Shown: positions 4,269 to 64,000 of the stretch, piece after piece | How the letters are laid out: every line of letters starts with the position of its first letter | Position numbering within the stretch: position 1 is the stretch's first letter | Source: a virus | DNA length: 64,000 nucleotides | Direction: 5' to 3' (one strand) | Virus record (IMG/VR): IMGVR_UViG_3300042259_000159 | Program-made: the position numbers and the translations under genes | Notes under the pieces: generated by a model | The model's database searches: none | Seen by the model: the letters and a program-made list of their open reading frames with translations, nothing else | What the model was told of the DNA's origin: nothing

Positions 4269-5043
4269 GGGGCACTCCCAGATTGTACTTCTTAATAAGA
4301 GCGACTGCCGAATCTACATCCGAAGTGTTGATGATGTTGGTGATGTCTCCCTCTTCCTCAGCCAAGTCTCTTCCTGCAAGCAAGTCAACAACAGCTTGTC
4401 GGGAAGCGGAGAACACCCAACGCATCAGACGCTCTTCTTTAAGCCAAGCATTGGACAGAGTGCGATATTCCATGCCGTAAGGCTTAACACGAAAAGCCCC
4501 TGCCTTCCCGTAGAGTTCTCTCCTTTTGGTGTCCTTGTCGAACAGAAGAGAAGGCAATCCAAGGTAGAAATCCAGCTGCCGTGCAAGCTGACACGAAGCA
4601 AGGAAAGCTCCGAAGTCGTTCACATCATGCTCCATATAGCCGATATGAACATGCCCAGCAGCAGTGCGGAAGTCTCGATTACCGTCAGGAGAAGGGTTGA
4701 TGTCCTGCGTCCACCCATTGTAGTCGGGGTCACACCCCAATTCAAGAGCGGCAGGAGGCTGAGTAGCCATATACTCCTTGCCAAAATGAGCCACAGGCTC
4801 AATGACAATTTCCTCCTTCACCATACGACGAAGCTGAGCGAATACATGCTCAATGTTGCTGACGAAGGTGTTTTCATCAGCTGCCGGCTCAATGTTAAAC
4901 TCAAGAGCCATACCATCCACCTGTACAGCCCCCTTCTCAACAGGGAAAGGGGCTTCCTTAGTCCCGGGAATGAGGCCGTAGCCGGAGATGAACTTCCCAT
5001 TGTCCTTCACAAACAGTTCGGGGTCGGTGCCAATGTATATCAT
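4252..5043 (-). CDS. hypothetical protein, possible second COOH-NH2 ligase-like enzyme
   Basis: Track ORF 263 aa (MIYIGTDPELFV...AAGHVHIGY). Sits between the amidoligase-like gene and the amidotransferases. Family assignment tentative. Confidence 0.4.
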   Translation of the reverse strand: MIYIGTDPELFVKDNGKFISGYGLIPGTKEAPFPVEKGAVQVDGMALEFNIEPAADENTFVSNIEHVFAQLRRMVKEEIVIEPVAHFGKEYMATQPPAALELGCDPDYNGWTQDINPSPDGNRDFRTAAGHVHIGYMEHDVNDFGAFLASCQLARQLDFYLGLPSLLFDKDTKRRELYGKAGAFRVKPYGMEYRTLSNAWLKEERLMRWVFSASRQAVVDLLAGRDLAEEEGDITNIINTSDVDSAVALIKKYNLGVPHAVEI

Positions 5044-28647: not shown

Positions 28648-30024
28648 ATGGAGATGTTTTTTAGCAACAAAGAGGTTATCAGGGCTTGGGAAAATGTTGT
28701 GAAAAAACTTAACGCCAGCGGTTTTAAAGGTGCCATTGTTGGCGGTGCAGTTAGGGATGTTTTTATGGGAAAGACTCCCACAGATATAGACATTGCTACA
28801 AATGCAACACCAGAGGAGGTTTGTAGCATCTTTAAAGGTGCTAAACTTGTTGGTGAAAGCTTTGGTGTTTGCCGTTGGAATGGCTATGAAATTGCTACTT
28901 ATCGAAACGATGTCCACAACGGTATTGGTGATACTTGTTGCACCGTGAGGTATACAGACGATCTCATTGAAGACCTTAGGCGTAGAGACTTCACAATGAA
29001 TGCTTGTGCATATGAGAGGCATCCTGACGGGACAACGCATTTTGTTATGGCACAGGCAGGTTGTCTGGATGACATCGAGAATAAGCGTCTTGATTTTGTA
29101 GGCAATGCTGAAGATAGAATCAGGGAAGATCCCAACCGCAGCTTCAGAGCATACCGCATGATTTGCAAAACAGGCTTTCTGCCGTCATATGCTACAGCAA
29201 AGATAATATACAACAGAGGTATTGTTGAAAAATATCTTCCGTACATTGCACCTGAGAGGATAGGTAAAGAGCTTATAAAATCTATGGAGGAGCCTTTCTC
29301 TTGGAATTTTTTTAGGTGTCTTTACAGGTCTGGTATTATGTACACTCTCATCCCTGAGATGGCACAGGCTTGGAATATTTGGGGAGGAAAATACCATGCA
29401 GAGTACGTTGGTGAACACCTTATGGCTGTTGGTATGGGTATCTCTGCAAAATTCCCCTTGCTGAGGCTTGCAGGGTATCTGCATGATGTTGGTAAGGGGG
29501 TAACACACGAGGATGGCAGCTTCATCCGGCATGAAAAAGAGGGCGTGCATATTGCGCGGAGGTTTCTTAAAAGCCTTAAGTTCTCTACAAAAGATACAGA
29601 GAAGGTTTGCAATATAATTCGTTGCCATATGCGTAGATTTGGTGAGAATGAAACGCCTGCTACAAACAGGCGAACCCTTGCATATCTTGCAAAACACAAT
29701 GTCTGCACATACGATTTCATCCGTTTGCGGATTGCGGATCACAACGGCAACTTTGCATGCAAGAAGATGAAATTCAGAGATATTAAGTCCCTTGTCAGAT
29801 GTTGGGACACCTATCAGTTTGAAAAACAAGCTGCCCATAGTAGGAAAATGCTTGCCATTAATGGCAGGGATATTATGAAAGAGTTTAATATCCCTCCGTC
29901 AAGACTTGTTGGGGAGATGATTGAATTTGCCCATAATATTGTTCTTGACAATGTTGATAAAAACGAATATAGTATCCTTATCAATGAAATTAAAAAGCGG
30001 TTCGGAGGTAGCAATGGCGAATGA
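28648..30024 (+). CDS. cca: tRNA nucleotidyltransferase (CCA-adding enzyme) with HD domain
   Basis: Track ORF 458 aa with RBS caaggagg. Polymerase-beta head motif GGAVRD...DIDIAT and HD motif LHDVGK. Confidence 0.8.
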   Translation: MEMFFSNKEVIRAWENVVKKLNASGFKGAIVGGAVRDVFMGKTPTDIDIATNATPEEVCSIFKGAKLVGESFGVCRWNGYEIATYRNDVHNGIGDTCCTVRYTDDLIEDLRRRDFTMNACAYERHPDGTTHFVMAQAGCLDDIENKRLDFVGNAEDRIREDPNRSFRAYRMICKTGFLPSYATAKIIYNRGIVEKYLPYIAPERIGKELIKSMEEPFSWNFFRCLYRSGIMYTLIPEMAQAWNIWGGKYHAEYVGEHLMAVGMGISAKFPLLRLAGYLHDVGKGVTHEDGSFIRHEKEGVHIARRFLKSLKFSTKDTEKVCNIIRCHMRRFGENETPATNRRTLAYLAKHNVCTYDFIRLRIADHNGNFACKKMKFRDIKSLVRCWDTYQFEKQAAHSRKMLAINGRDIMKEFNIPPSRLVGEMIEFAHNIVLDNVDKNEYSILINEIKKRFGGSNGE

Positions 30025-48848: not shown

Positions 48849-51800
48849 CTAAATGCTTTTATCTACAAACTTTCTCTGTGGAAAATCAAATTCCCGCCTT
48901 GTTTTATTCCAAGCTTTTACGGGTGTAAAAAACCCAACAACCCTTGTCAGCTGTGTACTTATATCTTCCGAACATATGGGGCATGTACTGAAGGAACCCA
49001 TAGAGACATGGGAGTTGATACACTCAGAGTATACGGTATTAATGGCAAAATGTTCACATCCACAACCCAAAGCAAAACAGATAATTTTCTTGGCCTGCTC
49101 TCTTGTCAGCCTCTGCCCGACAGTGGCATGAACAATCCCCCCGCCTGTTAGGTTTTTAGTATATTCTCCGTCAATTCTGAGCCTGTCCCACAGAGATGCC
49201 TCTTCCCACAAAGGAACAAACTGGTTTGCATAGAGAGGGTATTCTATAAAAGTATCGCCGTGAATGATCTTATCTGCGCTGCAAACTTTTACAGCCATAC
49301 TCTCTGCTGGGATTTGCTCAATGTTGAAGACATATCCTGCGTTCTTCTTGGTATACAATCTAGCTTTTCTGTTAAGAAATGTCAAGATCTTTTTCTTCAA
49401 ATCCCCCTCAACACCGAACCTTTGTTTAAGAACCTTTTCACACTCGTAAAGACCAAGAATACCAAACGTTGAAAAGAGCCTGTTGAGGTCTATCCACCCA
49501 CGCGTTATAAAAGGCTGAAGACCTATTTGTTCAAGGACATGAATCAAGACCTTATGAGCAATCAGAATATCTTTAGCAGCCTCTACACGGTACGTGTATA
49601 TTTTCCAAAAATCATCAATACTCTCGGCCTCAATTGCCATCTTGTTGAAATTAAGAGTAACAACTCTATGGCTCCCGATGCTGGAAAGAACACCGGCACC
49701 GAAAGAATTGGAGGTGGATGCCACATCTAACATCTCTTCATCATTGATCAATCGGCAACAGCTAGCGATCTTTGTGCTCTCAGATGTGAAAATATTGTAG
49801 CGCGAAATGTCTCTATTAAGAAATATTTCCAAACTCTCTTCGTCTGCAAGGATGTAATCATCGCCGTCCTTAGTTTTTGAAATGTTCATCGTGCAAACAG
49901 GGAACCTGTAAGGCATCCCGTTATTTGAGGGATCTCCTTTATCAAAGATGTCTAGGAATATTTCCTGCAATTCAAAAACATAGTCAACACACTCTTCTAT
50001 ATCTACAACACCACCATCTGAAAACATCCACAAAAGATGTTCCTTTATGATGTACCTGAGTTTGTGTTTATCAAACACCGATACATTGGTAAAGGGACTC
50101 TCAACTCCGTCACGACTCAAATGGTTTACGCTGTGAATAAGCTGTTGAAACTCGTTTTCTATCTCTTTCCTCACAGCCTTATCGTTTTTAAGCACATCAA
50201 GGGGAACCTTATTCTTTATCATGAGAAGGTGAGCAACATCTATAAATACAGTACCTATGGCTAGAGCACCAGCAACATGCGATGACATTTGGTGGATTGT
50301 CTCACACAGGGCGGCAATATAACTATTAACTCTTTTTGCCGGTTTAGAGGGCAATACTCCAAAAGTTCTTCCTTCTGTAATGAGATTTGTTGCGTTTAAA
50401 GAATAACAATTATGTTGCACCATTCCGTTTGCATAAAAACGGCCCGTTGCTGTTGTCAAATCATATACGTCTTGAAGCTCCTCTCTAAGCTTTCTTGTAC
50501 TAGGAATGTCTTCAAGATTAAACCTGATGATTTTTACAACCCTGTTGCTTTCGCCCTTGGTGTTTGCTTTTTCATTATACTTATCATAGTCTTCTTTATG
50601 CATCTTCATCTTATCAGAAAGATCAACCATCTTATTCGTACTTGACGGGACAAAGGAAAGGGCATAAATCGAATTAGAAATATCACTCCCTTTTATCCTT
50701 TTTCTAAGGCATCGAATACCTTCAATGCCTCTAAGGACGTCATAAAGTGTGTTTATTACTGCCATAGACTGCAAACAAATCTCCACCCTGCCATTCTTTT
50801 TGTAGGTATATCCGTCCGCGTCTACAAGCCCCGCAACAAGTGCCTCTACAGAATCATTTGTCCAAGAGAGGATGTTCTTAGGAAGAACCTTTGTGAAGCT
50901 ATTTTCTTTGTTCCCGAAACCAAAAAAGGCACTTACAAGAAAATTCATATCATAAGAAGACCAATTAATCTGTCTCTCGACTTTATCACTGGGCTTAAAA
51001 AGATTCGCATCAGGAAACAAGTCTTTTATGATACTATAAATTCTTGAGTTATCAATATCGTTTTGATAAACACTGCAAAGCGTTCCCCCTCTTGTAAATC
51101 TGAAAGAGCCTTTTATGTCCTTACCGTTCATTACGCCATCATCAACACAATACCCTTCAAAGTTCCCATCACCAAGCATAAAGCCAAGAAGGTAGGCCAG
51201 CTTTTCTGGAACAATTATTGTTTTTTCCACGGAGGGCAAACAAGTCTCTGTCAAAACAGCATCCCCAACAGAAAGTTCTGAGGCTATTTTTTCAGTTCCA
51301 TCTTCCATATAGATTGGGTGGTTGTCTGTTACCAAAGCAAAGTGCCCTGCCTCTGTCTGATACAAAGAGAATCCTGTATCCGTTTTATGCTTGATAATAC
51401 GTTGTACAGCAACCCATCCATTGTTTGTATCCCAAACCTCTATATTAACTTTTTCACTCACATTGCAGGCCAACTTACCGGAACGACCTTTTGCGGTGTT
51501 CTTGTTAGTGATGTTCGCACTCACATTATTACGCAGCATTGCTGTTGTAATCTCTAGATCTCTTGTAAGGCCTTTTGTGTTAATTTCCTCATGCGTACCC
51601 CTATTTTCGGAGTGTATTGCAAACATATTGAAAAGCTTTTTAAGAGGAATACAAATAATCTCTCCGTTAATTCTGACAAAAACAGGCGTGTTTCCATAAT
51701 ACGAATATGGAAGGTTTAGCTTCGTGCTGTCGGAGATGGGAAGACTGAAATCCAACATTTCTCCTATAAGCCTTTTAGCCCTCTTCTTGCCGTAGAGTTC

Positions 51801-52151
51801 CTTCATAACACGGTAGAGGAAATCGTACCCTGCAATTTTTTTCTGGGGGGCACTTGCCTCACTCTGTATTCCGGCAATTGTCTTCTCATTCTTATTAGCA
51901 TTGTCATCAATAGAGACATCATTAATGTTTGCATTTAATTGTTTTTGAAACATCTTGAGAAAGTCTGTATTGTCCTGCGAAAGACCATGCAGACGCATAA
52001 GTTTTTCAGCTTTTGTATCAATCTCTTCTTGAGAAAGGGTTGTTTTACGAGAAAGATTCCTTTTCAAAGCCTTAAGCATCTGTTTCCGTGTGTATTCAAT
52101 CTCAGCATCATTTGTAAAAGATGAAGAAAAACCTTTAGCTATGCTATTCAA
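48849..52151 (-). CDS. nrdD: anaerobic ribonucleoside-triphosphate reductase (class III) carrying an intein
   Basis: C-terminus has four-Cys zinc ribbon (CINSH...CPIC) and glycyl-radical motif TRVVGF...WNKTRREF. Start uncertain: track begins at TTG 52220; TTG at 52151 after AAGGAG is preferred here. Confidence 0.8.
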   Translation of the reverse strand: MNSIAKGFSSSFTNDAEIEYTRKQMLKALKRNLSRKTTLSQEEIDTKAEKLMRLHGLSQDNTDFLKMFQKQLNANINDVSIDDNANKNEKTIAGIQSEASAPQKKIAGYDFLYRVMKELYGKKRAKRLIGEMLDFSLPISDSTKLNLPYSYYGNTPVFVRINGEIICIPLKKLFNMFAIHSENRGTHEEINTKGLTRDLEITTAMLRNNVSANITNKNTAKGRSGKLACNVSEKVNIEVWDTNNGWVAVQRIIKHKTDTGFSLYQTEAGHFALVTDNHPIYMEDGTEKIASELSVGDAVLTETCLPSVEKTIIVPEKLAYLLGFMLGDGNFEGYCVDDGVMNGKDIKGSFRFTRGGTLCSVYQNDIDNSRIYSIIKDLFPDANLFKPSDKVERQINWSSYDMNFLVSAFFGFGNKENSFTKVLPKNILSWTNDSVEALVAGLVDADGYTYKKNGRVEICLQSMAVINTLYDVLRGIEGIRCLRKRIKGSDISNSIYALSFVPSSTNKMVDLSDKMKMHKEDYDKYNEKANTKGESNRVVKIIRFNLEDIPSTRKLREELQDVYDLTTATGRFYANGMVQHNCYSLNATNLITEGRTFGVLPSKPAKRVNSYIAALCETIHQMSSHVAGALAIGTVFIDVAHLLMIKNKVPLDVLKNDKAVRKEIENEFQQLIHSVNHLSRDGVESPFTNVSVFDKHKLRYIIKEHLLWMFSDGGVVDIEECVDYVFELQEIFLDIFDKGDPSNNGMPYRFPVCTMNISKTKDGDDYILADEESLEIFLNRDISRYNIFTSESTKIASCCRLINDEEMLDVASTSNSFGAGVLSSIGSHRVVTLNFNKMAIEAESIDDFWKIYTYRVEAAKDILIAHKVLIHVLEQIGLQPFITRGWIDLNRLFSTFGILGLYECEKVLKQRFGVEGDLKKKILTFLNRKARLYTKKNAGYVFNIEQIPAESMAVKVCSADKIIHGDTFIEYPLYANQFVPLWEEASLWDRLRIDGEYTKNLTGGGIVHATVGQRLTREQAKKIICFALGCGCEHFAINTVYSECINSHVSMGSFSTCPICSEDISTQLTRVVGFFTPVKAWNKTRREFDFPQRKFVDKSI
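50409..51467 (-). mobile_element. intein with LAGLIDADG homing-endonuclease domain inside nrdD
   Basis: In-frame insert with block B GHFALVTDNH, two LAGLIDADG motifs (LLGFMLGDGNF, LVAGLVDADGY), C-terminal block VYDLTTATGRFYANGMVQHN followed by Cys. N-terminal boundary (CNVSEK vs earlier Cys) uncertain. Confidence 0.6.
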
Positions 52152-52659
52152 AGCAGTAAACTCCTTCTTTTGTAAGTTTAACATAATTATTATTATAAAG
52201 TTCTTGGTTAGACGAACCAAGTACGAGTTTTGTCCTTTGCCCTTTTGTTGTATCTGACTGGTGCAGTTCTTTTATATACTCTCCTGTTTTTATAAATTTG
52301 AAACCGTTAAGATTAAGGTATTTAACAGTGTCAATATCGTATCCAGTATAAATACATATGTTAAAACACCCACCGTATTGTTCTAAGAACTGTGCTGTAA
52401 ACCCTCTGTTGCAGGAGGCTAGCGGATCTCCACCAAGAAGTACAATATTATTTGTGCGGTATTTTAAGGTCTCCTGTTTACAATGGTTGTAGAAGTCTTC
52501 AATGGAAAATTCCACACCACCCTGATATTCAGGGTTTTGCAGGGAGGGGTTATGACACCCCTTACAGGAAAAATCACACCCACACATAAAAAGACTTACT
52601 GCCCACCCATCCTTTGAGGGGTAGTCTGTAAATGTCATCTCAGAACCTGCAAATCTCAT
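52144..52659 (-). CDS. nrdG: anaerobic RNR activating enzyme (radical SAM)
   Basis: Track ORF 171 aa; radical-SAM Cys motif CDFSCKGC (C-x3-C-x2-C) near the N-terminus. Confidence 0.8.
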   Translation of the reverse strand: MRFAGSEMTFTDYPSKDGWAVSLFMCGCDFSCKGCHNPSLQNPEYQGGVEFSIEDFYNHCKQETLKYRTNNIVLLGGDPLASCNRGFTAQFLEQYGGCFNICIYTGYDIDTVKYLNLNGFKFIKTGEYIKELHQSDTTKGQRTKLVLGSSNQELYNNNYVKLTKEGVYCFE

Positions 52660-54658: not shown

Positions 54659-55108
54659 TTACTTATCTCTCTGGTAGTAGTGCTTTGATATTGCACTTCT
54701 TTCCATTTTTTGAATTTTTTTATTCTGAACGTCGGACCCATAACGTCCAGAACACGTTCTGGAACAAAAGGGCCCAGCTTTATTTTTAATGTTTCTCTGT
54801 GTCACCGTTGGCGTAAAAAGAGAATCGCAATATGGACACTTTACTTCTTCCACTCTCACCCTTACCACATCAAGCGAAGCATGGGAGGATCTACACAAAA
54901 CTTGTAAATTTTCAATTTTGTTGTTCAGTGGATTTCTATCAATGTGGTCAACTGTCTCAGATGGATCTAAAACTCTGCCCAGATGCACTTCCATTATAAT
55001 TCTGGAAGCCTGTTTAGCAGTTCTTTTAATTCCATCATATAAAACAATGACCAGTCTACCGTCTTTCCTTAAATATGGCCCATAAATTTTTTTACACTCT
55101 GGGTACAA
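54659..55108 (-). CDS. HNH homing endonuclease inserted in tRNA array
   Basis: HNH core HIDRNPLNNKIENLQVLCRSSH. Track ORF 54659-55192 would overlap tRNA-Leu, so the start is placed at TTG near 55108. Confidence 0.7.
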   Translation of the reverse strand: MYPECKKIYGPYLRKDGRLVIVLYDGIKRTAKQASRIIMEVHLGRVLDPSETVDHIDRNPLNNKIENLQVLCRSSHASLDVVRVRVEEVKCPYCDSLFTPTVTQRNIKNKAGPFCSRTCSGRYGSDVQNKKIQKMERSAISKHYYQRDK

Positions 55109-55122
55109 TTTTTGAATGTGTT

Positions 55123-55206
55123 TGGTAGGAGAAGAGAGATTCGAACTCTCAAGGAATAATCCGTCGAGGCTTAAACTCGATGTGTTTACCATTTCACCAT
55201 TCTCCC
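55123..55206 (-). tRNA. tRNA-Leu (anticodon TAA), type II, CCA encoded
   Basis: Hand-folded cloverleaf: acceptor GGGAGAA/TTCTCCT, anticodon stem TCGAG/CTCGA with loop TTTAAGC, long variable arm, T-arm GAGAG-TTCGAAT-CTCTC. Confidence 0.7.
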
Positions 55207-55245
55207 GTATTTTTTATCTACCATTCCGCCATTCCCGCATTTATT

Positions 55246-55323
55246 TGGTACCCACTGTGAGATTCGAACCCACACTAATCAGTTTCTAAGACTGATGCCT
55301 CTGCCAAGTTGGGCTATACCAGT
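55246..55323 (-). tRNA. aberrant tRNA-like gene (anticodon TAG, type I architecture, poorly paired acceptor stem)
   Basis: Good D-, anticodon (TCAGT-CTTAGAA-ACTGA) and T-arms, but 5' acceptor ACTGGTA mispairs with the adjacent 3' strand AGTGGGT. Confidence 0.4.
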
Positions 55324-55581
55324 ATTATGCTTATTATTTTATTTTGAAAGGCCATATGTATACACATATATATATATACATATATATATGTATAGAGCAA
55401 CCAAAATGGTTAAATAAAAAGGTGTTTTGTGGAGACACCAAACTCCTCCAGTTTTAGTGATCTGGAAACAATAAGCGGCGCAGGTGCTCTTTAAAACACG
55501 TGCTACCAAGCGTATAAATTGTCTAGGGGATTTCACCAAACACATTATGTTATTGGAGGGATCTTTCCCTAGACTCAGTAA

Positions 55582-55654
55582 AGCTCCTGACAGGACTTGA
55601 ACCCGCAACCGGCTGATTACAAATCAGCTGCTCTGCCAGTTGAGCTACAGGAGC
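55582..55654 (-). tRNA. tRNA-Thr (anticodon TGT), no encoded CCA
   Basis: Acceptor GCTCCTG/CAGGAGC, D-arm GCTC...GAGC, anticodon loop TTTGTAA, T-loop TTCAAGT. Confidence 0.7.
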
Positions 55655-55658
55655 AGAA

Positions 55659-55730
55659 CAGAGGGAGAAGGATTCGAACCTTCGAATGACGGGACCAAAA
55701 CCCGTTGCCTTACCGCTTGGCTACCCCTCT
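55659..55730 (-). tRNA. tRNA-Gln (anticodon TTG), no encoded CCA
   Basis: Acceptor AGAGGGG/TCCCTCT, anticodon stem ACGGG/CCCGT with loop TTTTGGT, T-arm GAAGG-TTCGAAT-CCTTC. Confidence 0.7.
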
Positions 55731-55738
55731 AAATTTTT

Positions 55739-55815
55739 TGGCTCCGGCGGCAGGATTTGAACCTACATTCGCAATGGTTAACAGCCATTTGCCTTACCAA
55801 TTCGGCGACACCGGA
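55739..55815 (-). tRNA. tRNA-Asn (anticodon GTT), CCA encoded
   Basis: Acceptor TCCGGTG/CGCCGGA, anticodon stem AATGG/CCATT with loop CTGTTAA, T-arm GTAGG-TTCAAAT-CCTGC. Confidence 0.7.
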
Positions 55816-55860
55816 ATGAACTTTTTATTTGTTATCAGCATTGTTTTGCTTTATTTTAAA

Positions 55861-55939
55861 TGGTCTCGGTGATTAGATTTGAACTAATGATTATTCCTGC
55901 TCCCAAAGCAGGTGCCATACCAAGCTAGGCGACACCGAG
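55861..55939 (-). tRNA. tRNA-Pro (anticodon TGG), CCA encoded
   Basis: Acceptor CTCGGTG/CACCGAG, anticodon stem CCTGC/GCAGG with loop TTTGGGA, T-arm ATTAG-TTCAAAT-CTAAT. Confidence 0.65.
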
Positions 55940-56416
55940 ATCAGGTGTGGTACCAAACTCCACTATGGGCAGAGGTTATAAGAAGGTCCGTACATGATAT
56001 AGACAGATATTCTTCCATAACAGCGGTACGGACGCTGTCTCATTTTTATATCTTTCAGTGTGCTATTACGCCAAAGGGAAATTAAGCCTTACCAGTTACG
56101 GGGTGCCCTTTTACTATCCACAAAGAATTTCAAATCGCGTGCATTCTAAGTATCGGAAAATTCTACAACCACTTAAAGTACACCTCGTTTAAGAGATAGC
56201 GACCTGTGCTTCGTCCCACTCTTTAAAGGATGGCTGCCTCAAAGCCCACCTCCTGAAAAATGCATGAAGGATTATCCCTCCTTCGCTAAATACAACCTAT
56301 CAATTTTAAGGGTTCTTGTCAAGAACATTTTAAGGTTTTTGAAATTTTTGTTGAACGCTGATTTGCTACGCGGGTACAGCGTTCGAAACCTCGATAGCAT
56401 CCTTGCCGTTGGCAAA

Positions 56417-56506
56417 GCTGTCAGGAGCCGCAGGAGGAGAATTGAACTCCTCTGGCATCAACACGCAGTCACCACAACTACATCTACCGTTACGGGTATG
56501 GCTCCC
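56417..56506 (-). other. tRNA-like element (T-arm and acceptor helix, non-canonical D/anticodon region)
   Basis: Minus-sense GGAGCCA...GAGGAG-TTCAATT-CTCCTC...CGGCTCC; lies just outside the right-end hairpin of the tnpB element. Confidence 0.3.
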
Positions 56507-56574
56507 CATCCTAGTCACCTGTTGATACCTTATAGGTTCAGCCCTACCAAGGGCACTGCGGCTTAAGTGGGTTG

Positions 56575-56860
56575 GTTGGTGCAGATTGTGAACGTACCCC
56601 CGCCTATAGAGGCGGAAGCTTCCTGCTTCAGCGAGAACAGCACCAGTAACTCCGAAGAGTTGTGGCGAATTACACTCTCTCCACAGGCGTAAATTCCCGT
56701 GCGACCCACGGTACTTTATGAGTTACGCTAGGCAGATATTCGCCCAGCTTCTTCTCTAATATTTATTGCAGCGTTCTTGTCACGGTTATGATGACTGCCA
56801 CACTTAAGGCAATCCCATTCCCGCACAGACAAGTCTTTGGTATCCTTGTTCTGGTAGCCA
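56575..56860 (-). ncRNA. candidate TnpB guide RNA (omega/reRNA) region at the element right end
   Basis: By analogy with IS200/IS605 TnpB systems the guide RNA overlaps the tnpB 3' end and runs to the right-end hairpin (56600-56615). Not folded or aligned. Confidence 0.3.
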
Positions 56861-57965
56861 CAGACATGGCATAGCTGACTGCTTGGATACCATTTGTCTA
56901 TCTTGATAAGTTGCTTACCCTGCCATGCAAGTTTGTATTTCAGCATACTTGTGAACATGCTCCAGCCGTTGTCGGATATGGATTTACCAAAGTTGAACTT
57001 GCCACCCTTCTTTCGCTTCGCCATGTCCTTTACGCTAATGTCCTCTATGCCAATCACATCATAGCGGTCTGCAAGATAACGAGCTTTCTTATGCAGGAAG
57101 TCGCGGCGTTGATTAGCAATTTTCTCATGGAGTACAGCCAAACGTAGTCTTTGTTTATTCCTATTACGGCTCCCTTTTTGTCTCTTGGAGAGTTTTCTTT
57201 GTGCCTTGATCAATCTCTTTTCGGCTTCCCGTAAGAAATTTGGATAATCGGCGTTGTCCTCATCGGAAGCAACATACATCCCGTGCATAGCAAAATCCAA
57301 TCCAAGAAAATTCTTCGGTATGATGGGAAGTATTTGGTTTTCATACTCCACCAAAATACTAATATAGTATTTTCCTGACGGTGTTTTACTTATGGTTACA
57401 GTCTTTATGGTGCTATTCTCCATCAATGGACGATGCAGACACAGCTTTACCCAACCTATTTTCGGCAGCTTGACTTTGTTTCCCTCGATTCTTACAGAGC
57501 CATGTTGGTTGTTCGTAGAATATGAAGCATGACCCGCTTTCTTCGACTTGAAGCGTGGCTTGCAAAAATGCTTCCTATTGCTCCAAAAGTTGTTATACGC
57601 CTTGTTCAGGTTTATTTGGGCATTGGCGAGAGCAAGGCTGTCAACCTCTTTCAGCCAAGGAAACTCTTTCTTGTACTGTGCAGGTGTGTTGTTCAGCCTC
57701 TCTCCTGTTTCCTTATAGTGATCAAGACGATCTCCAAGCATCTTGTTATAGATGAATCTGGCACTGCCGAAAGTCTTGGCAAACATAATCTTCTGTTCAA
57801 TTGTCGGGTAGAGTCTATATCGGTATGCCTTATTCACTATAATCACCTGCCTTGATTTTCTATGTATTTACGAATTGTCTCAAACGGAGCAATTATCTGG
57901 CTCAACTACTTACGTAAATTCGCTAGACACACCTTCATCCCCCACCTTAGAGGTGGAGGGCTTCT
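56590..57965 (-). mobile_element. IS200/IS605-family insertion element carrying tnpB only
   Basis: tnpB flanked by similar imperfect palindromes: cccgcctatagaggcgg (56600-56615) and ccaccttagaggtgg (57942-57956). No Y1 tnpA. Inserted between tandem tRNA-Leu genes and the rest of the tRNA array. Confidence 0.65.
56728..57846 (-). CDS. tnpB: TnpB (RuvC-like RNA-guided endonuclease, IS605 OrfB family)
   Basis: Track ORF 372 aa; N-terminal YRYRLYPT, RuvC-like region, C-terminal zinc finger CHVCGY...CLKCG. Confidence 0.85.
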   Translation of the reverse strand: MIIVNKAYRYRLYPTIEQKIMFAKTFGSARFIYNKMLGDRLDHYKETGERLNNTPAQYKKEFPWLKEVDSLALANAQINLNKAYNNFWSNRKHFCKPRFKSKKAGHASYSTNNQHGSVRIEGNKVKLPKIGWVKLCLHRPLMENSTIKTVTISKTPSGKYYISILVEYENQILPIIPKNFLGLDFAMHGMYVASDEDNADYPNFLREAEKRLIKAQRKLSKRQKGSRNRNKQRLRLAVLHEKIANQRRDFLHKKARYLADRYDVIGIEDISVKDMAKRKKGGKFNFGKSISDNGWSMFTSMLKYKLAWQGKQLIKIDKWYPSSQLCHVCGYQNKDTKDLSVREWDCLKCGSHHNRDKNAAINIREEAGRISA

Positions 57966-57987
57966 GGCGGGTTAGGTTAAATCCCTT

Positions 57988-58012
57988 GTGTCTACTAATT
58001 CCACCAATCGGG
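57988..58012 (-). pseudogene. truncated tRNA 5' fragment (acceptor + D-arm) adjacent to the tnpB element left end
   Basis: Minus-sense GCCCGATTGGTGGAATTAGTAGACAC duplicates the 5' 26 nt of tRNA-Leu(TAA) at 58023-58109, including the aaagatttt spacer, but has no anticodon or T-arm. Confidence 0.45.
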
Positions 58013-58022
58013 CTAAAATCTT

Positions 58023-58109
58023 TGGTGCCCAATGCAGGACTCGAACCTGCACGCCATTTCAGGCAGGAGGGCTTAAACCTCGTGTGTCTACCAATTCCAC
58101 CAATCGGGC
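58023..58109 (-). tRNA. tRNA-Leu (anticodon TAA), type II, CCA encoded
   Basis: Acceptor GCCCGAT/ATTGGGC, anticodon loop TTTAAGC, long variable arm, T-arm GCAGG-TTCGAGT-CCTGC. Confidence 0.65.
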
Positions 58110-58118
58110 TAAAATCTT

Positions 58119-58202
58119 TGGTGCCTCAGACAGGATTCGAACCTGCACGGATCTCTCCACTTGGTCCTAAGCCAAGCGTGTCTGCCATTCCACCACTGAG
58201 GC
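58119..58202 (-). tRNA. tRNA-Leu (anticodon TAG), type II, CCA encoded
   Basis: Acceptor GCCTCAG/CTGAGGC, anticodon stem CTTGG/CCAAG with loop CTTAGGA, long variable arm, T-arm GCAGG-TTCGAAT-CCTGT. Confidence 0.7.
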
Positions 58203-58229
58203 TGAAATTTTAATTAAAGTTTGACATAC

Positions 58230-58640
58230 TCCCCACGGATAAATCCGGGGGATTCTGGATTCAAACAGCAACGGCGGGTGCAAGCACCCTTCTGTCTGTC
58301 ATTGAGGCAGTCGCCTTAGAACCAGCCGCTGCACCGAACTCGCTACCGCTGGGCGCTCTGCAAGAACACACTCCCAGATATGTATGCCAATAGCAATTTT
58401 TGTCATGTTTCATGTTTACCTCCGCTCGCAGGTGAGCTATTCGTTATATGTCGTAAAATTCATGGCTCGTGTATTTGCACGGGATTACCCCATGCAAAAC
58501 GTGCAGGAAGGCAAGCACAGCCTGACGCACGGCCTCCCTTAATGCCTTTTTTGCTACGGCAAAATTCGCCATCATGTGCTTAAAATAGATCATCATATAA
58601 CCAGTCAATCAACCGGATTTGCTATGCTCTCCGGTTATTT
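58230..58640 (+). other. non-coding region with tmRNA-5'-like motif (candidate structured RNA)
   Basis: Plus-strand GGGGGATTCTGGATTCAAAC (about 58247-58266) resembles the conserved 5' end of tmRNA, but no 3' T-arm/CCA partner was found in the next 400 nt. Confidence 0.25.
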
Positions 58641-60713: not shown

Positions 60714-61423
60714 TTAGATAGTAAACAGTTTTTCAACACCTTTCTTGCTTCCCGTGTTCTTTGTCAGGCTGCTTACAATTTCTTTTTTCCAAATGCAAGT
60801 AAAATCTTCTGGAGCATTATATTCTGAAACAAACACCTTATGTCCCTCATTAGCCTTATCTCTGCACCACTGCCAAAACAACTCATGGTCAAAATCATTA
60901 GAGTACTTTGTTGTCCCTGAATAGGGCGGATCACAGTAGATTAAGCTGTTACTGGGGATATGTAGCTCATCATAAGGACAACACAAAAATTCTACATTTT
61001 GAATTAGCGAGGACTGTTTTATTGCTGATTGCTTACTACGTTTTGTTTGTATTATCATGTTTTCAATATCACCTTTTGTTCCTGCTTTGTCCCGCCTATA
61101 CCCCCCAAAAAATTTACCACCAAAAGACATTGAAAATGCTGTAAATCCAGTTAAACCATCAATATTTTTGTGTTTTTTCATTGAATTGTACATATCTTCT
61201 GTAATAATTTCAGGAATACTTTTTGGTGCATCGCGTATAAGTTTTAATGCTTCTATTACATACGGGCTGCAATGGCGGCCCCAATACGATTCCCATCAAC
61301 CTTATCAATCATGTTTCCACCTCCAACAAACGGTTCAACCCACCACTGGTCAGGTTTTCTTTCTGCAAGCATAATTGGGAGGATATACTTTGCTATTCTG
61401 TTTTTACTTCCCATGTATTTCAT
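60714..61423 (-). pseudogene. Dam-like N6-adenine DNA methyltransferase requiring a -1 frameshift
   Basis: N-terminal piece MKYMGSKNRIAKY...EPFVGGGNMIDKV (ATG 61421-61423 after AGGAGG) stops at 61256; the DPPY-containing C-terminal part (track ORF 60714-61193) continues in the -1 frame as ...PYVIEALKLIRD. Frames diverge near a GGGGCC run around 61255-61270. Confidence 0.55.
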
Positions 61424-61772
61424 ACTTACCTCCTGTTTTTGTTTTAGTTGTAAGGTGCTTTTACCTGTCAATATCAAACTACCCCTATTCCCCCTGTTTG
61501 TCAATACCTTATTCTTATCTAAACATAAGATATATATATTATATATATATTCTTTATATAATATAAATATATATACTTTATATATAGTATATTTATATAA
61601 TATATATATGTATATAATATATATACTCCTACTCACTACGAGACACATACATAATATATACATTAACCCTTCCTGCAAAGGAAGCCGTAGGATACCATAA
61701 AAAAGAGATTTTGTCAAGCATTATTTTAAGAAATGTTAAAAATAATTTCCTAACCTAATCTCTATTTTTTAC

Positions 61773-63037: not shown

Positions 63038-63350
63038 GAACATTTTAATGTTTTTCCGGCAGATGCCTTACGAACATCTGTGAACATTTTGGGTGCCGCA
63101 GGTTCGGGAAAGTCATACATAATGAATATGATACCTTTGAGGTATGTCGATTGCCCCAACTTTAGGGGGATTGTCTTCCGAAGGGAAACGACACAGCTTA
63201 CAGGTGAAGGGGGGATGTGGGATACAGCAACGGAGATATACTCTGAGCTGCCTAAAAATATCAGGCCCAAAATATTGAAACATAACCTGAGAATGATTTT
63301 TCCGAATGGGGCAAAAATTAAGTTTTCACACATGGAAAATGATAATGATT
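63038..63350 (+). CDS. terL: terminase large subunit, exon with Walker A
   Basis: Frame opens after the intron core; Walker A GAAGSGKSY. Exon ends are approximate because the reading frame stays open into the flanking intron sequence. Confidence 0.5.
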
Positions 63351-63585
63351 TCAGGAAACATCAAGGGTTAATTAGTAGCCCCTTGTGTTGGTGACAGCGC
63401 AAGCAAACTAACCTAATTCGGTGGAAGCCCAAACATGTAGGATGTGGGTGATACCGAGCAAGCCACGGCGTGTGTAACGACTAGTTCTTAGGAACGTAGG
63501 CCCAAGCGGGTCGAAACGGTTAGCATCTTATTAAGATGAAGATATAGTCTACTCTGCATGGAAACATGCAGCGGACACTTTATGT
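63350..63585 (+). mobile_element. group I intron core (candidate), copy 2
   Basis: R-like gtaacgactagttc (63474-63487), S-like gaagatatagtctac (about 63537-63551), P9-like hairpin ctgcatggaaacatgcag (63553-63570). Confidence 0.5.
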
Positions 63586-63594
63586 GTCGGGCAG

Positions 63595-63860
63595 ATGTTA
63601 GCGCCATCTGTTGAATATTATGTACAATATACCCTGATATGCTTTGATGAGGCAACACATTTCACTTTCCAACAAGTTGAATACTTAATGTCACGTATGA
63701 GAAGTAAAAGTAAGTATGCTTCTCGTATGGTTCTGTCGTGGATTACGCGACATGTATGGCGAAAGCTGTACTGGCAACTGTGTGAACTCAGGGAAACCTT
63801 AGCTGCTGCAATTGGGCAGAGGAAGAAGGCAATCCTGAGCGAAGCCTTCCCACCGGGAAG
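63595..63860 (+). CDS. terL: terminase large subunit, exon with Walker B
   Basis: Walker B ICFDEATHF shortly after the start of track ORF 63595-63888; 3' boundary approximate. Confidence 0.5.
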
Positions 63861-64000
63861 GAACGTGCAACGACCATCGAAAGCGTAACACCTGTTACAG
63901 TGAGTAGAGTACACCACACATGTGTGGTGGAAGCGCACAGCCCCTAACATGTAACGATGAGGGTGAAGATATGGTCTGAACCTACAGAAATGTAGAAAAA
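63860..64000 (+). mobile_element. group I intron core (candidate), copy 3, running off the window
   Basis: R-like gtgcaacgaccatcga (63864-63879), S-like gaagatatggtctgaac (63965-63981), P9-like hairpin ctacagaaatgtag (63982-63995). Confidence 0.45.

Follow-up and report, generated by a model that had tools for sequence, protein, structure and literature searches.

The tRNA region of this phage genome is a predicted operon of stable RNAs, all encoded on the minus strand, in which a TnpB transposon lies inside a tRNA-Leu(UAA) gene. The split layout of the region and its excess of leucine genes would stem from mobile-element activity and not from selection for leucine decoding, and we give this reading as a whole a probability of about 0.7. 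The window, i.e. the whole 64,000-nucleotide stretch analysed (IMG/VR record IMGVR_UViG_3300042259_000159), encodes DNA polymerase I, primase-helicase, NrdD, thymidylate synthase, ligase, terminase and a CCA-adding enzyme (PHROG, Pfam). These matches to phage replication, nucleotide-metabolism and terminase genes, and the location of the stretch in an IMG/VR viral contig, bear out the phage origin assumed in a preliminary description of the region; megablast of 15 kb returned no close phage relatives from GenBank. The presumed host is Phascolarctobacterium, from 94–96% TnpB identity only.

Table 1. Features of the stable-RNA region and associated genes, with positions in the window.
Feature	Position	Strand	Details and basis
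CCA-adding enzyme with HD domain	28648–30024	+	PHROG tRNA nucleotidyltransferase; Pfam PolyA_pol, HD, tRNA_NucTran2_2
HNH homing-type endonuclease gene	54659–55107	−	Pfam HNH_3, E 9e-10; start codon chosen by eye
Second intact tRNA-Leu(UAA)	55123–55206	−	84 nt, CCA encoded; ARAGORN, Rfam 57.3 bits
23-nt remnant GCGGGAATGGCGGAATGGTAGAT	55216–55238	−	Like acceptor and D arm of Leu-type tRNA; by eye, low confidence
Defective chimeric tRNA-like gene, anticodon UAG	55246–55314	−	ARAGORN fold; L002 alignment; Rfam 37.8 bits
tRNA-Thr(UGU)	55582–55654	−	Without CCA; ARAGORN, Rfam 66.3 bits
tRNA-Gln(UUG)	55658–55731	−	Without CCA; ARAGORN, Rfam 62.4 bits
tRNA-Asn(GUU)	55739–55815	−	CCA encoded; ARAGORN, Rfam 57.5 bits
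tRNA-Pro(UGG)	55861–55939	−	CCA encoded; ARAGORN, Rfam 54.7 bits
RNA copying 23S rRNA helices 42–44 (GTPase-associated centre; L11-binding site)	56048–56263	−	~215 nt
Promoter-like TTGACA-17-TAGGTT	56294–56322	−	By eye; ahead of second tRNA cluster; common to L002
tRNA-like RNA candidate	56426–56562	−	Acceptor, D and T arms; fold −60.4 kcal/mol, z = −3.0
Right-end flank AATCTGCACCAACCAACCCACTTAA, omega RNA guide position	56563–56587	−	Non-tRNA sequence in the window
IS200/IS605-family element without tnpA	56588–57976	−	1389 bp; ends set by comparison with ~50 copies
Omega (right-end) RNA scaffold	56588–56790	−	Overlaps tnpB 3' end; conserved, partly covarying fold, 18 copies
tnpB	56728–57846	−	372 aa; Pfam OrfB_IS605, Cas12f1-like TNB, HTH_OrfB_IS605
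tRNA-Leu(UAA) 5' half, further copy	57977–58013	−	37 nt, ends TTTAA; direct repeat D1/D2, junction listing
Intact tRNA-Leu(UAA)	58023–58109	−	87 nt, CCA encoded, anticodon loop TTTAAGC; ARAGORN, Rfam 48.2 bits
tRNA-Leu(UAG)	58119–58202	−	84 nt, long variable arm, CCA encoded; ARAGORN, Rfam 58.4 bits

The minus strand carries eight tRNA genes that span exactly positions 55,123–58,202, and ARAGORN and the Rfam tRNA model RF00005 (run at the gathering threshold) agreed on all eight. The Rfam matches have E-values of 3e-12 to 2e-4, hence the calls are far beyond chance, and the set of tRNA-like genes previously folded by hand was recovered at the same coordinates and accepted in full by both predictors. 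A regular cloverleaf was found in seven of them (Leu-UAG, two Leu-UAA, Pro-UGG, Asn-GUU, Gln-UUG and Thr-UGU; ARAGORN folds), so that the earlier count of three leucine genes, two UAA and one UAG, is correct for the soundly folded genes. Direct reading of the sequence also gave the same distribution of CCA ends as before, encoded in all Leu genes, Asn and Pro and absent from Gln and Thr. The phage CCA-adding enzyme provides context for these two CCA-less genes. The tRNA array as it had been described is real but ordinary. The eighth gene, left unnamed there, is a fourth leucine-like call with anticodon UAG and a length of only 69 nt; two tRNA 5' fragments, the transposon between the tRNA clusters and two structured RNAs other than tRNAs had been missed. 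The HNH gene follows directly after the last tRNA.

The 69-nt call is a chimera in which the acceptor stem has two mismatches and the D arm is almost missing (ARAGORN fold). The 5' part corresponds to a sound tRNA(UAA) of 79 nt in a sister phage (contig L002), whereas the 3' two-thirds differ in the alignment, hence the acceptor strands are now unpaired, and the Rfam tRNA score is 37.8 bits compared with 59.2 bits for the L002 ortholog. Of the two fragments, the longer is a further tRNA-Leu(UAA) 5' half, in front of which the spacer is the same 9 nt, AAGATTTTA (58,014–58,022). It differs from the intact tRNA-Leu(UAA) at 58,023–58,109 in four of 37 positions, and their continuations are unlike; with these four differences, its source could be another allele and not a local duplication. 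The shorter fragment is the 23-nt remnant. As one call is a chimera and two further pieces are fragments, the apparent leucine emphasis of the array is partly debris, and phage tRNA gene counts can mislead. The two intact tRNA-Leu(UAA) genes themselves belong to different sequence lineages.

The IS200/IS605-family element begins at its left end with CCTAACCCGCC and finishes at its right end with GGGGGTACGTTCAC, with hairpins at 57,939–57,960 (CCACC-TCTAA-GGTGG) and 56,600–56,615 (CCGCC-TCTATA-GGCGG), respectively. Within the anticodon loop of the further tRNA-Leu(UAA) copy, of which the 5' half alone is left, the element immediately follows TTTAA. The same TTTAA was present at the left-end flank in 48 of 51 copies of the element from phages and Negativicutes genomes, and a target-site duplication is absent, the insertion being seamless in L002. 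TnpB is similar to ISDra2 TnpB (E 3e-79), with D, E and D aligned to D191/E278/D361 and the zinc-finger CxxC...CxxC present, and is apparently an intact ISDra2-type nuclease guided by RNA. The interval between the left end and tnpB is only 130 nt long, and a bacterial copy (L027) carries a 131-aa HUH TnpA there; the Y1 HUH transposase TnpA is missing from the window's element, which is a non-autonomous derivative. A weak RAGATH-18 match (56,620–56,687) falls within the omega RNA scaffold. The right-end flanks of the element copies are different at every locus, and no TTTAA-flanked match to the window's guide was found elsewhere in the window.

The sister phage has the layout tRNA-Leu(UAA) 5' half, same element, 3' half, and its joined halves are identical to the window's intact gene at 58,023–58,109. 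Because the element lies between both halves, the omega RNA guide in L002 is the tRNA 3' half, with the right-end flank matching that intact gene in 20 of 20 positions adjoining TTTAA; the guide matches the other window tRNAs in 6–7 of 20 positions, and the tRNA-Leu(UAA) at 55,123–55,206 in only 6 of 20. The element inserts after a TTTAA motif, which U32-U33-U34-A35-A36 of the tRNA-Leu(UAA) anticodon loop supply, and its insertion point is between nucleotides 36 and 37. L002 represents the simple state, with the tRNA split by the element and the right-end flank furnishing a guide that consists of the tRNA 3' half. TnpB with this guide would, by the published mechanism of TnpB-driven retention, cut any uninterrupted copy of the tRNA-Leu(UAA) gene, and therefore copying of the element into that gene would be favoured (10.1101/2023.03.14.532601, PMC10690162). 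In the window, where an intact Leu(UAA) copy stands directly upstream of the interrupted one, the tRNA 3' half and 317 nt appear to have been lost, exactly from the element's right end outward, which would have changed the guide to a sequence lacking a target in the window, and avoidance of self-targeting would be the selective reason. The element ends, target motif and exact insertion site are established by the comparisons above; we infer the order of insertion, loss and guide change, and the occurrence of the arrangement in only two phage contigs weighs against proving its direction or order. Exact-pattern scans of viral contigs for element-free alleles or further relatives of the locus gave only the window's contig, and metagenome scans gave none.

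A transposon insertion into one of the Leu(UAA) copies, with copy duplication and decay, accounts better for the surplus leucine genes than codon usage does. In a rough comparison of 59 phage ORFs with 12.9 kb of DNA from Phascolarctobacterium (the inferred host; a small sample that flanks the element), phage values were higher for CUU+CUC+CUA (0.61 versus 0.28), ACA (0.41 versus 0.27), CAA (0.47 versus 0.34), AAC (0.46 versus 0.33) and CCU+CCC+CCA (0.82 versus 0.61), and lower for UUA+UUG (0.24 versus 0.36), the codons read by the duplicated Leu(UAA). The earlier suggestion that the tRNAs fit phage codon usage therefore holds, weakly, for five of six anticodons and fails for Leu(UAA), the duplicated gene on which the preliminary description had laid stress. 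Selection of several leucine genes to match the phage's own leucine codons would account for Leu(UAG), the CUU, CUC and CUA codons being enriched, but it seems to us quite unlikely, since the duplicated anticodon is the one with the rarer codons, one UAG call is the defective chimera, and an interrupted Leu(UAA) is tolerated by the sister phage. The most likely role of the seven sound tRNA genes is codon supply, as a supplement to the tRNAs of the infected host. Doubtful, too, is a mainly counter-defensive array, with replacements or decoys for nuclease-cut host tRNAs and repeated leucine genes that answer a leucine-directed nuclease. Phage tRNAs do rescue infection from tRNA-cutting defences (PMC11464382, PMC11555353, PMC13096335). 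Leu(UAA) is also kept in two copies though UUA/UUG use is lower than in the presumed host, and a CCA-adding enzyme with an HD domain is encoded by the phage itself; however, neither a nuclease nor a target nor a variant loop came to light, the host is itself presumed, and transposon insertion, duplication and decay explain the extra leucine copies.

The anticodon loop of tRNA-Leu(UAA) is a classic bacterial group I intron site, and two real group I introns occur elsewhere in the window (63,359–63,997, Rfam). An insertion behaving as an intron, whether group I, like that of tRNA-Leu(UAA) in cyanobacteria, or an IStron, in which a group I intron is paired with TnpB (PMC10690162), would allow the interrupted tRNA to be made by splicing. 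The Intron_gpI model which finds the two introns gave no match within 54,800–58,500, however, even at E up to 5, the 130 nt before tnpB include an ordinary IS605 left-end hairpin, the insertion site is 36/37 and not the 34/35 of the group I intron, and the 3' exon is entirely absent from the window. With no ribozyme match, an ordinary left end and no 3' exon, both intron readings of the insertion, group I and IStron, were rejected, and splicing deserves very little credence. An assembly artefact is just as improbable as the source of the tandem layout of intact gene and fragment: short tandem repeats may be misassembled, and the one contig that is identical (L001/L026) is perhaps the source of the window itself, but the tandem copies differ at 4/37 positions and continue differently, and L002 is an independent contig with the element at the same tRNA site.

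Two further structured RNAs are encoded in the array. The tRNA-like candidate has, in its predicted fold, an 88-nt three-hairpin domain in place of the anticodon arm, and is 100% identical in L002, with unlike flanks. It had no match in Rfam, GenBank phages or E. coli genomes; a tmRNA or Y-RNA-like identity was ruled out, as ARAGORN called none and Rfam had no match. The promoter-like sequence nearby did not pass a consensus scan.

Within a closing helix of its own, the other RNA (56,048–56,263) reproduces 23S rRNA almost base for base in the hairpin of helix 43, the junction and the loop of helix 44, and a variable arm interrupts its helix 44. The family to which it belongs comprises at least 48 distinct sequences from phages, usually beside tRNAs, and its consensus is identical to a Paenibacillus 23S rRNA at 35/37 and 13/14 positions. 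Across 48 distinct sequences, both-side changes were seen in 275 cells, compared with 94 ± 9 in shuffled and 64–84 in slid controls, and 10 of 11 pairs of the closing helix and four of seven of helix 43 covary, with which a smaller set agrees. One member has a weak LSU rRNA match, and E. coli matches fall only within 23S rRNA. The family is absent from Rfam and from the literature searched, and is apparently an undescribed phage RNA family. Only the helix 42–44 region was matched consistently, which speaks against mimicry of a second rRNA region by the variable arm, and a match in Paenibacillus phage Pd_22F was rejected as plain 23S rRNA sequence. Apparently co-transcribed with tRNA-Pro, Asn, Gln and Thr and belonging to a widespread family, this RNA could, we tentatively suggest, be a decoy. 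Sequestration of uL11 or of the uL10-L12 stalk might, for one, blunt the RelA-dependent stringent response; alternatively, the RNA might absorb an enzyme aimed at this rRNA centre, which binds L11 and L10, such as a Tre23-like ADP-ribosyltransferase (PMC8661411).

If the decoy reading is true, phage "tRNA arrays" are broader operons of translation-apparatus RNAs, and the TnpB element with its tRNA-half guide adds homing drive as a second layer inside such operons. Culturable Pseudomonas, Aeromonas and Xanthomonas phages carry the rRNA-site mimic, and it brings within reach the question of how phages manipulate the base of the ribosomal stalk or the enzymes attacking that base. The tRNA-Leu(UAA) locus provides a natural case, exact to the base, of a TnpB target motif that falls within a tRNA anticodon loop and of a guide that, in the sister phage, is a tRNA half. 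The two related phages seem to capture the before and after of the resulting conflict, which makes TnpB homing between co-infecting phages directly testable.

The array resembles the tRNA clusters of T4, T5, mycobacteriophages and jumbo phages in having several tRNA genes on one strand, some without CCA, in a phage of lytic type that carries nucleotide-metabolism genes of its own, and the homing-type endonuclease gene beside it recalls segB at the edge of the T4 cluster (PMC13096335). It differs in being split by a TnpB element inside a tRNA gene, and in its pseudogene debris and two non-tRNA structured RNAs. The element shares with ISDra2-type IS200/IS605 transposons a 372-aa TnpB with the RuvC triad, a subterminal hairpin at each end, insertion without target duplication on the 3' side of a fixed pentanucleotide and an omega RNA scaffold overlapping the tnpB 3' end. 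The ISDra2 target/TAM is TTGAT, whereas that of the window's element is TTTAA, and the element lacks tnpA and resides in a phage, inside a tRNA anticodon loop, a location for which no TnpB element was found in the literature searched. Cyanobacterial and plastid tRNA-Leu(UAA) group I introns and IStrons likewise place a mobile element in this gene and loop, but here there is no ribozyme, the site is 36/37 and not 34/35, and the element acts at the DNA level only, leaving the tRNA inactivated and not spliced. Finally, the mimic can be set beside 23S rRNA helices 42–44, whose helix 43 hairpin, junction and helix 44 loop it reproduces, and beside rRNA-imitating leaders of ribosomal-protein mRNAs such as the L10 leader. 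In contrast to these, the phage RNA has a free-standing gene and a covarying closing helix of its own, a 30–300 nt arm is inserted in its helix 44, and it sits among tRNAs and not before a ribosomal-protein gene.

Across the full 64-kb window, ARAGORN called eight tRNA genes, every one on the minus strand and within 55123–58202, and the same eight scored above the gathering score with the Rfam tRNA model (E-values 3e-12 to 2e-4). As the two methods make the same eight calls, the positions, strand and anticodons given in a preliminary description by a model working from sequence are correct, and the gene ends agree with its remark that CCA is encoded at the 3′ end of all Leu genes, Asn and Pro but absent from Gln and Thr. 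Seven of the eight calls fold as regular cloverleaves, and the sound leucine genes do number three (two UAA, one UAG). As stated there, this is an ordinary phage tRNA array; what can be added is a transposon within an anticodon loop and an RNA mimicking a ribosomal RNA site.

Features of the array and its surroundings, with related positions in comparison sequences
Feature	Sequence	Position	Strand	Basis
tRNA-Leu(UAG)	window	58119-58202	-	ARAGORN + Rfam
tRNA-Leu(UAA)	window	58023-58109	-	ARAGORN + Rfam
tRNA-Pro(UGG)	window	55861-55939	-	ARAGORN + Rfam
tRNA-Asn(GUU)	window	55739-55815	-	ARAGORN + Rfam
tRNA-Gln(UUG)	window	55658-55731	-	ARAGORN + Rfam
tRNA-Thr(UGU)	window	55582-55654	-	ARAGORN + Rfam
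Second UAG-anticodon call (chimera)	window	55246-55314	-	ARAGORN + Rfam
Ortholog of chimera	L002	5890-5968		
Second tRNA-Leu(UAA)	window	55123-55206	-	ARAGORN + Rfam
Leu-type tRNA remnant	window	55216-55238		by eye
IS200/IS605-family element	window	56588-57976		comparison of copies
tnpB ORF	window	56728-57846	-	Pfam
Segment absent from window	L002	4260-4626		
tRNA-like RNA	window	56426-56562	-	
tRNA-like RNA	L002	about 4650-4786		
rRNA mimic	window	56048-56263	-	
Mimic/ORF exchange	window	55952-56281		
Mimic/ORF exchange	L002	4929-5265		
Mimic homolog	L094	1485-1690		
Mimic homolog	L095	1185-1389		
Mimic homolog	L096	1187-1486		
Mimic homolog	L097	1187-1377		
Mimic homologs, many IMG/VR loci	L103-L185			
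Plain 23S rRNA sequence	L102 (MZ092003.1)	83376-84614		
Shared ~140 nt lies within	window	55408-55581	-	by eye
Terminator-like hairpin	window	near 55408-55432	-	by eye
TA-rich palindrome	window	55353-55394	-	by eye
HNH (HNH_3) endonuclease	window	54659-55107	-	
CCA-adding enzyme	window	28648-30024	+	
ORF with ribonucleotide reductase matches	window	48849-52220	-	
D12-class methyltransferase	window	60714-61717 (ORFs 61256-61717, 60714-61193)	-	
Group I introns	window	63359-63571, 63728-63997 (region 63080-63997)	+	Rfam, 76-77 bits

The eighth call is only 69 nt long, with two acceptor-stem mismatches and a nearly absent D arm in the ARAGORN fold, and scores 37.8 bits with Rfam against 59.2 bits for its ortholog in the sister phage contig IMGVR_UViG_3300036466_000329 (L002), a sound 79-nt tRNA with acceptor strands ACTGGTA/TACCAGT and anticodon UAA. 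Because identity between the two runs only as far as the D arm, with divergence beyond, the window's gene is a chimera with unpaired acceptor strands. A 23-nt remnant of another Leu-type tRNA 5′ end was also seen by eye, as were a long TA-rich palindrome between tRNA-Thr and the chimera, about 140 nt 3′ of tRNA-Thr common to the window and L002, and a terminator-like hairpin (GGTGT-9 nt-ACACC, then a T run). The last tRNA gene is directly followed by a homing-type endonuclease gene, whose real start is probably a TTG near 55107, the mechanical ORF start overlapping the tRNA. Elsewhere, the phage has a gene for a CCA-adding enzyme that also contains an HD phosphohydrolase domain; this enzyme suits the CCA-less Gln and Thr genes and is possibly relevant to repair of tRNA 3′ ends too.

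The two tRNA clusters are separated by a 372-aa ORF with OrfB_IS605, Cas12f1-like TNB and HTH_OrfB_IS605 domains, which matches ISDra2 TnpB (E 3e-79) and keeps the catalytic D191, E278 and D361 as well as the zinc finger. Comparison with about 50 other copies from IMG/VR contigs and Negativicutes genomes set the left end of the element at 57976 (CCTAACCCGCC...) and the right end at 56588 (...GGGGGTACGTTCAC), a length of 1389 bp with subterminal hairpins at both ends. In 48 of 51 copies TTTAA immediately precedes the left end. It is the target motif of the element and, if the rule for the IS200/IS605 family applies, would also be the TnpB TAM. From the 3′ end of tnpB to the right end, a conserved, partly covarying fold represents the omega RNA scaffold, a region with a weak RAGATH-18 match in Rfam. 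In a Phascolarctobacterium succinatutens copy, the interval from the left end to tnpB contains a 131-aa HUH TnpA, whereas in the window copy it is just 130 nt long, which means that this copy cannot transpose alone.

The simple state of the insertion is found in L002, whose TnpB is 97% identical to that of the window, and the window has what is probably a derived state. In L002 the order is GCCCGATTGGTGGAATTGGTAGACACACGAGGTTTAA, element, GCCCTCCTGCCTGAAATGGCGTGCAGGTTCGAGTCCTGCATTGGGCACCA; the tRNA 5′ half shows no difference from the window's intact Leu(UAA), and the 3′ half shows about 96% identity to it. Since U32-U33-U34-A35-A36 spells the target TTTAA, the element sits between nucleotides 36 and 37, within the anticodon loop. 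The right-end flank, which is the tRNA 3′ half, is also the L002 omega RNA guide, with TTTAA + GCCCTCCTGCCTGAAA as its predicted target; next to TTTAA this flank matches the window's intact Leu(UAA) at 20/20 positions, against 6–7/20 for other tRNAs. TnpB nucleases of this kind cut the empty site and thereby promote recombination that recopies the element (10.1101/2023.03.14.532601, PMC10690162). This anticodon-loop transposon explains how the array is laid out and some of its leucine excess; the possibility that the insertion is a group I intron or IStron was rejected.

Compared with L002, the window alone has an intact Leu(UAA) copy upstream. Directly 3′ of it comes a repeat of the 9-nt spacer AAGATTTTA, then a further Leu(UAA) gene of which only the initial 37 nt are present, ending in TTTAA at 57977, and immediately after that the element's first base. 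This orphan 5′ half differs from the intact gene at four positions. Beginning precisely at the right end and going outward, the window lacks the tRNA 3′ half and a further 317 nt present in L002. Its right-end flank is consequently AATCTGCACCAACC... and the target corresponding to the window's omega RNA guide would be TTTAA + AATCTGCACCAACCAA; no TTTAA-flanked match to this flank occurs elsewhere in the window. If active, a TnpB with the tRNA 3′ half as its guide could not persist beside an intact copy of this tRNA gene, so that a genome regaining the tRNA would presumably need to shed or alter that guide. This may have come about through unequal recombination at the shared GGCACCA, then a deletion adjoining the right end, and an element-free Leu(UAA) allele was not found in any sequence collection scanned.

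A candidate tRNA-like RNA starts 25 nt past the right end of the element, with acceptor stem GCCGCAG/CTGCGGC, a D arm, a T arm (GAGGAG-TTCAATT-CTCCTC) and an 88-nt three-hairpin domain in place of the anticodon arm (predicted fold −60.4 kcal/mol, z = −3.0). L002 and the window are 100% identical from the first base of this RNA as far as about 56340, while neighbouring DNA is 4–7% different. Among the contigs searched, only these two hold it, and it had no match in Rfam, GenBank phages or E. coli.

Because the nearest bacterial copies of the element lie in Phascolarctobacterium (94–96% TnpB identity), then Mitsuokella, Megasphaera and Selenomonas, the host is probably a gut Negativicute. The array had been proposed to adjust translation to phage codon usage or to counter tRNA-targeting host defences, a view that finds partial support. 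In a rough comparison of 59 phage ORFs with 12.9 kb of element-flanking DNA from Phascolarctobacterium, expressed as fractions within each amino acid's codon family, the phage exceeded the presumed host in codons read by Leu(UAG) (CUU+CUC+CUA, 0.61 versus 0.28), Thr(UGU) (ACA, 0.41 versus 0.27), Gln(UUG) (CAA, 0.47 versus 0.34), Asn(GUU) (AAC, 0.46 versus 0.33) and Pro(UGG) (CCU+CCC+CCA, 0.82 versus 0.61), but not in those read by Leu(UAA) (UUA+UUG, 0.24 versus 0.36). From these fractions, codon supply is a fair reading for five anticodons and not for the duplicated Leu(UAA). As for counter-defence by phage tRNAs, the precedents concern other tRNAs (PMC11464382, PMC11555353, PMC13096335).

Elsewhere in the window, two group I introns lie in or just 3′ of an ORF matching the terminase large subunit N-terminal domain, and this gene appears to be split by introns. 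A D12-class adenine methyltransferase is apparently split into two adjacent ORFs, which could reflect a frameshift, a pseudogene or an intervening element, and a 1123-aa ORF has its best anaerobic ribonucleotide reductase matches in the last ~280 residues.

The most novel object within the array coordinates is the rRNA mimic, a free-standing RNA of about 215 nt just upstream of tRNA-Pro. It matches unannotated gaps adjoining tRNA genes in several phages, with homologs in Pseudomonas phages UNO-G1W1, pf16, Astolliot and Milchi, Aeromonas phage 4_4572, and Xanthomonas phages XacN1 and XaC1. The family matches no Rfam family, one member having a weak match to the LSU rRNA model, and no description was found in the literature searched. 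Its E. coli matches fall solely in 23S rRNA, and by direct reading the 5′ block GGAGGTGGGCTTTGAGGCAGCCATCCTTTAAAGAGTG and 3′ block GCGTAATAGCACAC line up with 23S rRNA at roughly positions 1055–1104, in helices 42–44 that form the L11/L10-binding GTPase-associated centre. The family consensus is identical to a Paenibacillus 23S rRNA at 35/37 and 13/14 positions; at positions 1067 and 1070 the copy in the window carries U and G, respectively. Separately, the GenBank record of Paenibacillus phage Pd_22F includes a region without annotation that is plain 23S rRNA sequence, which was either captured from a host or is contamination.

Exact-pattern scans of IMG/VR returned 15, then 89 stretches, and covariation was assessed in a motif-anchored gapless alignment of 48 distinct cores. 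Of the 11 pairs in the closing helix, 10 changed on both sides, as did four pairs in helix 43. Such cells number 275, compared with 94 ± 9 for shuffled data and 64–84 with the partner strand slid. The covariation score was 0.48 against 0.10–0.17, a 17-sequence set agrees, and RNAalifold independently recovers the same helices from full-length members. Of 20 loci, 14 have tRNAs within 3 kb of the mimic; these share its strand without exception and many come within about 20 nt of it. The family numbers no fewer than 48 distinct members and spans a varied set of phages, frequently large ones. In L002, an ORF of about 93 codons replaces the mimic downstream of a shared promoter-like sequence, and this exchange upstream of the Pro-Asn-Gln-Thr tRNAs looks like a cassette-type swap.

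The mimic may act as a decoy for uL11 or the uL10–L12 stalk or, alternatively, for an enzyme aimed at this rRNA site; toxins aimed at the rRNA of the GTPase-associated centre exist (PMC8661411). Unlike 23S rRNA itself, members of the family carry an extra, variable arm of 30–300 nt within helix 44, on its 5′ strand, and a closing helix of their own.
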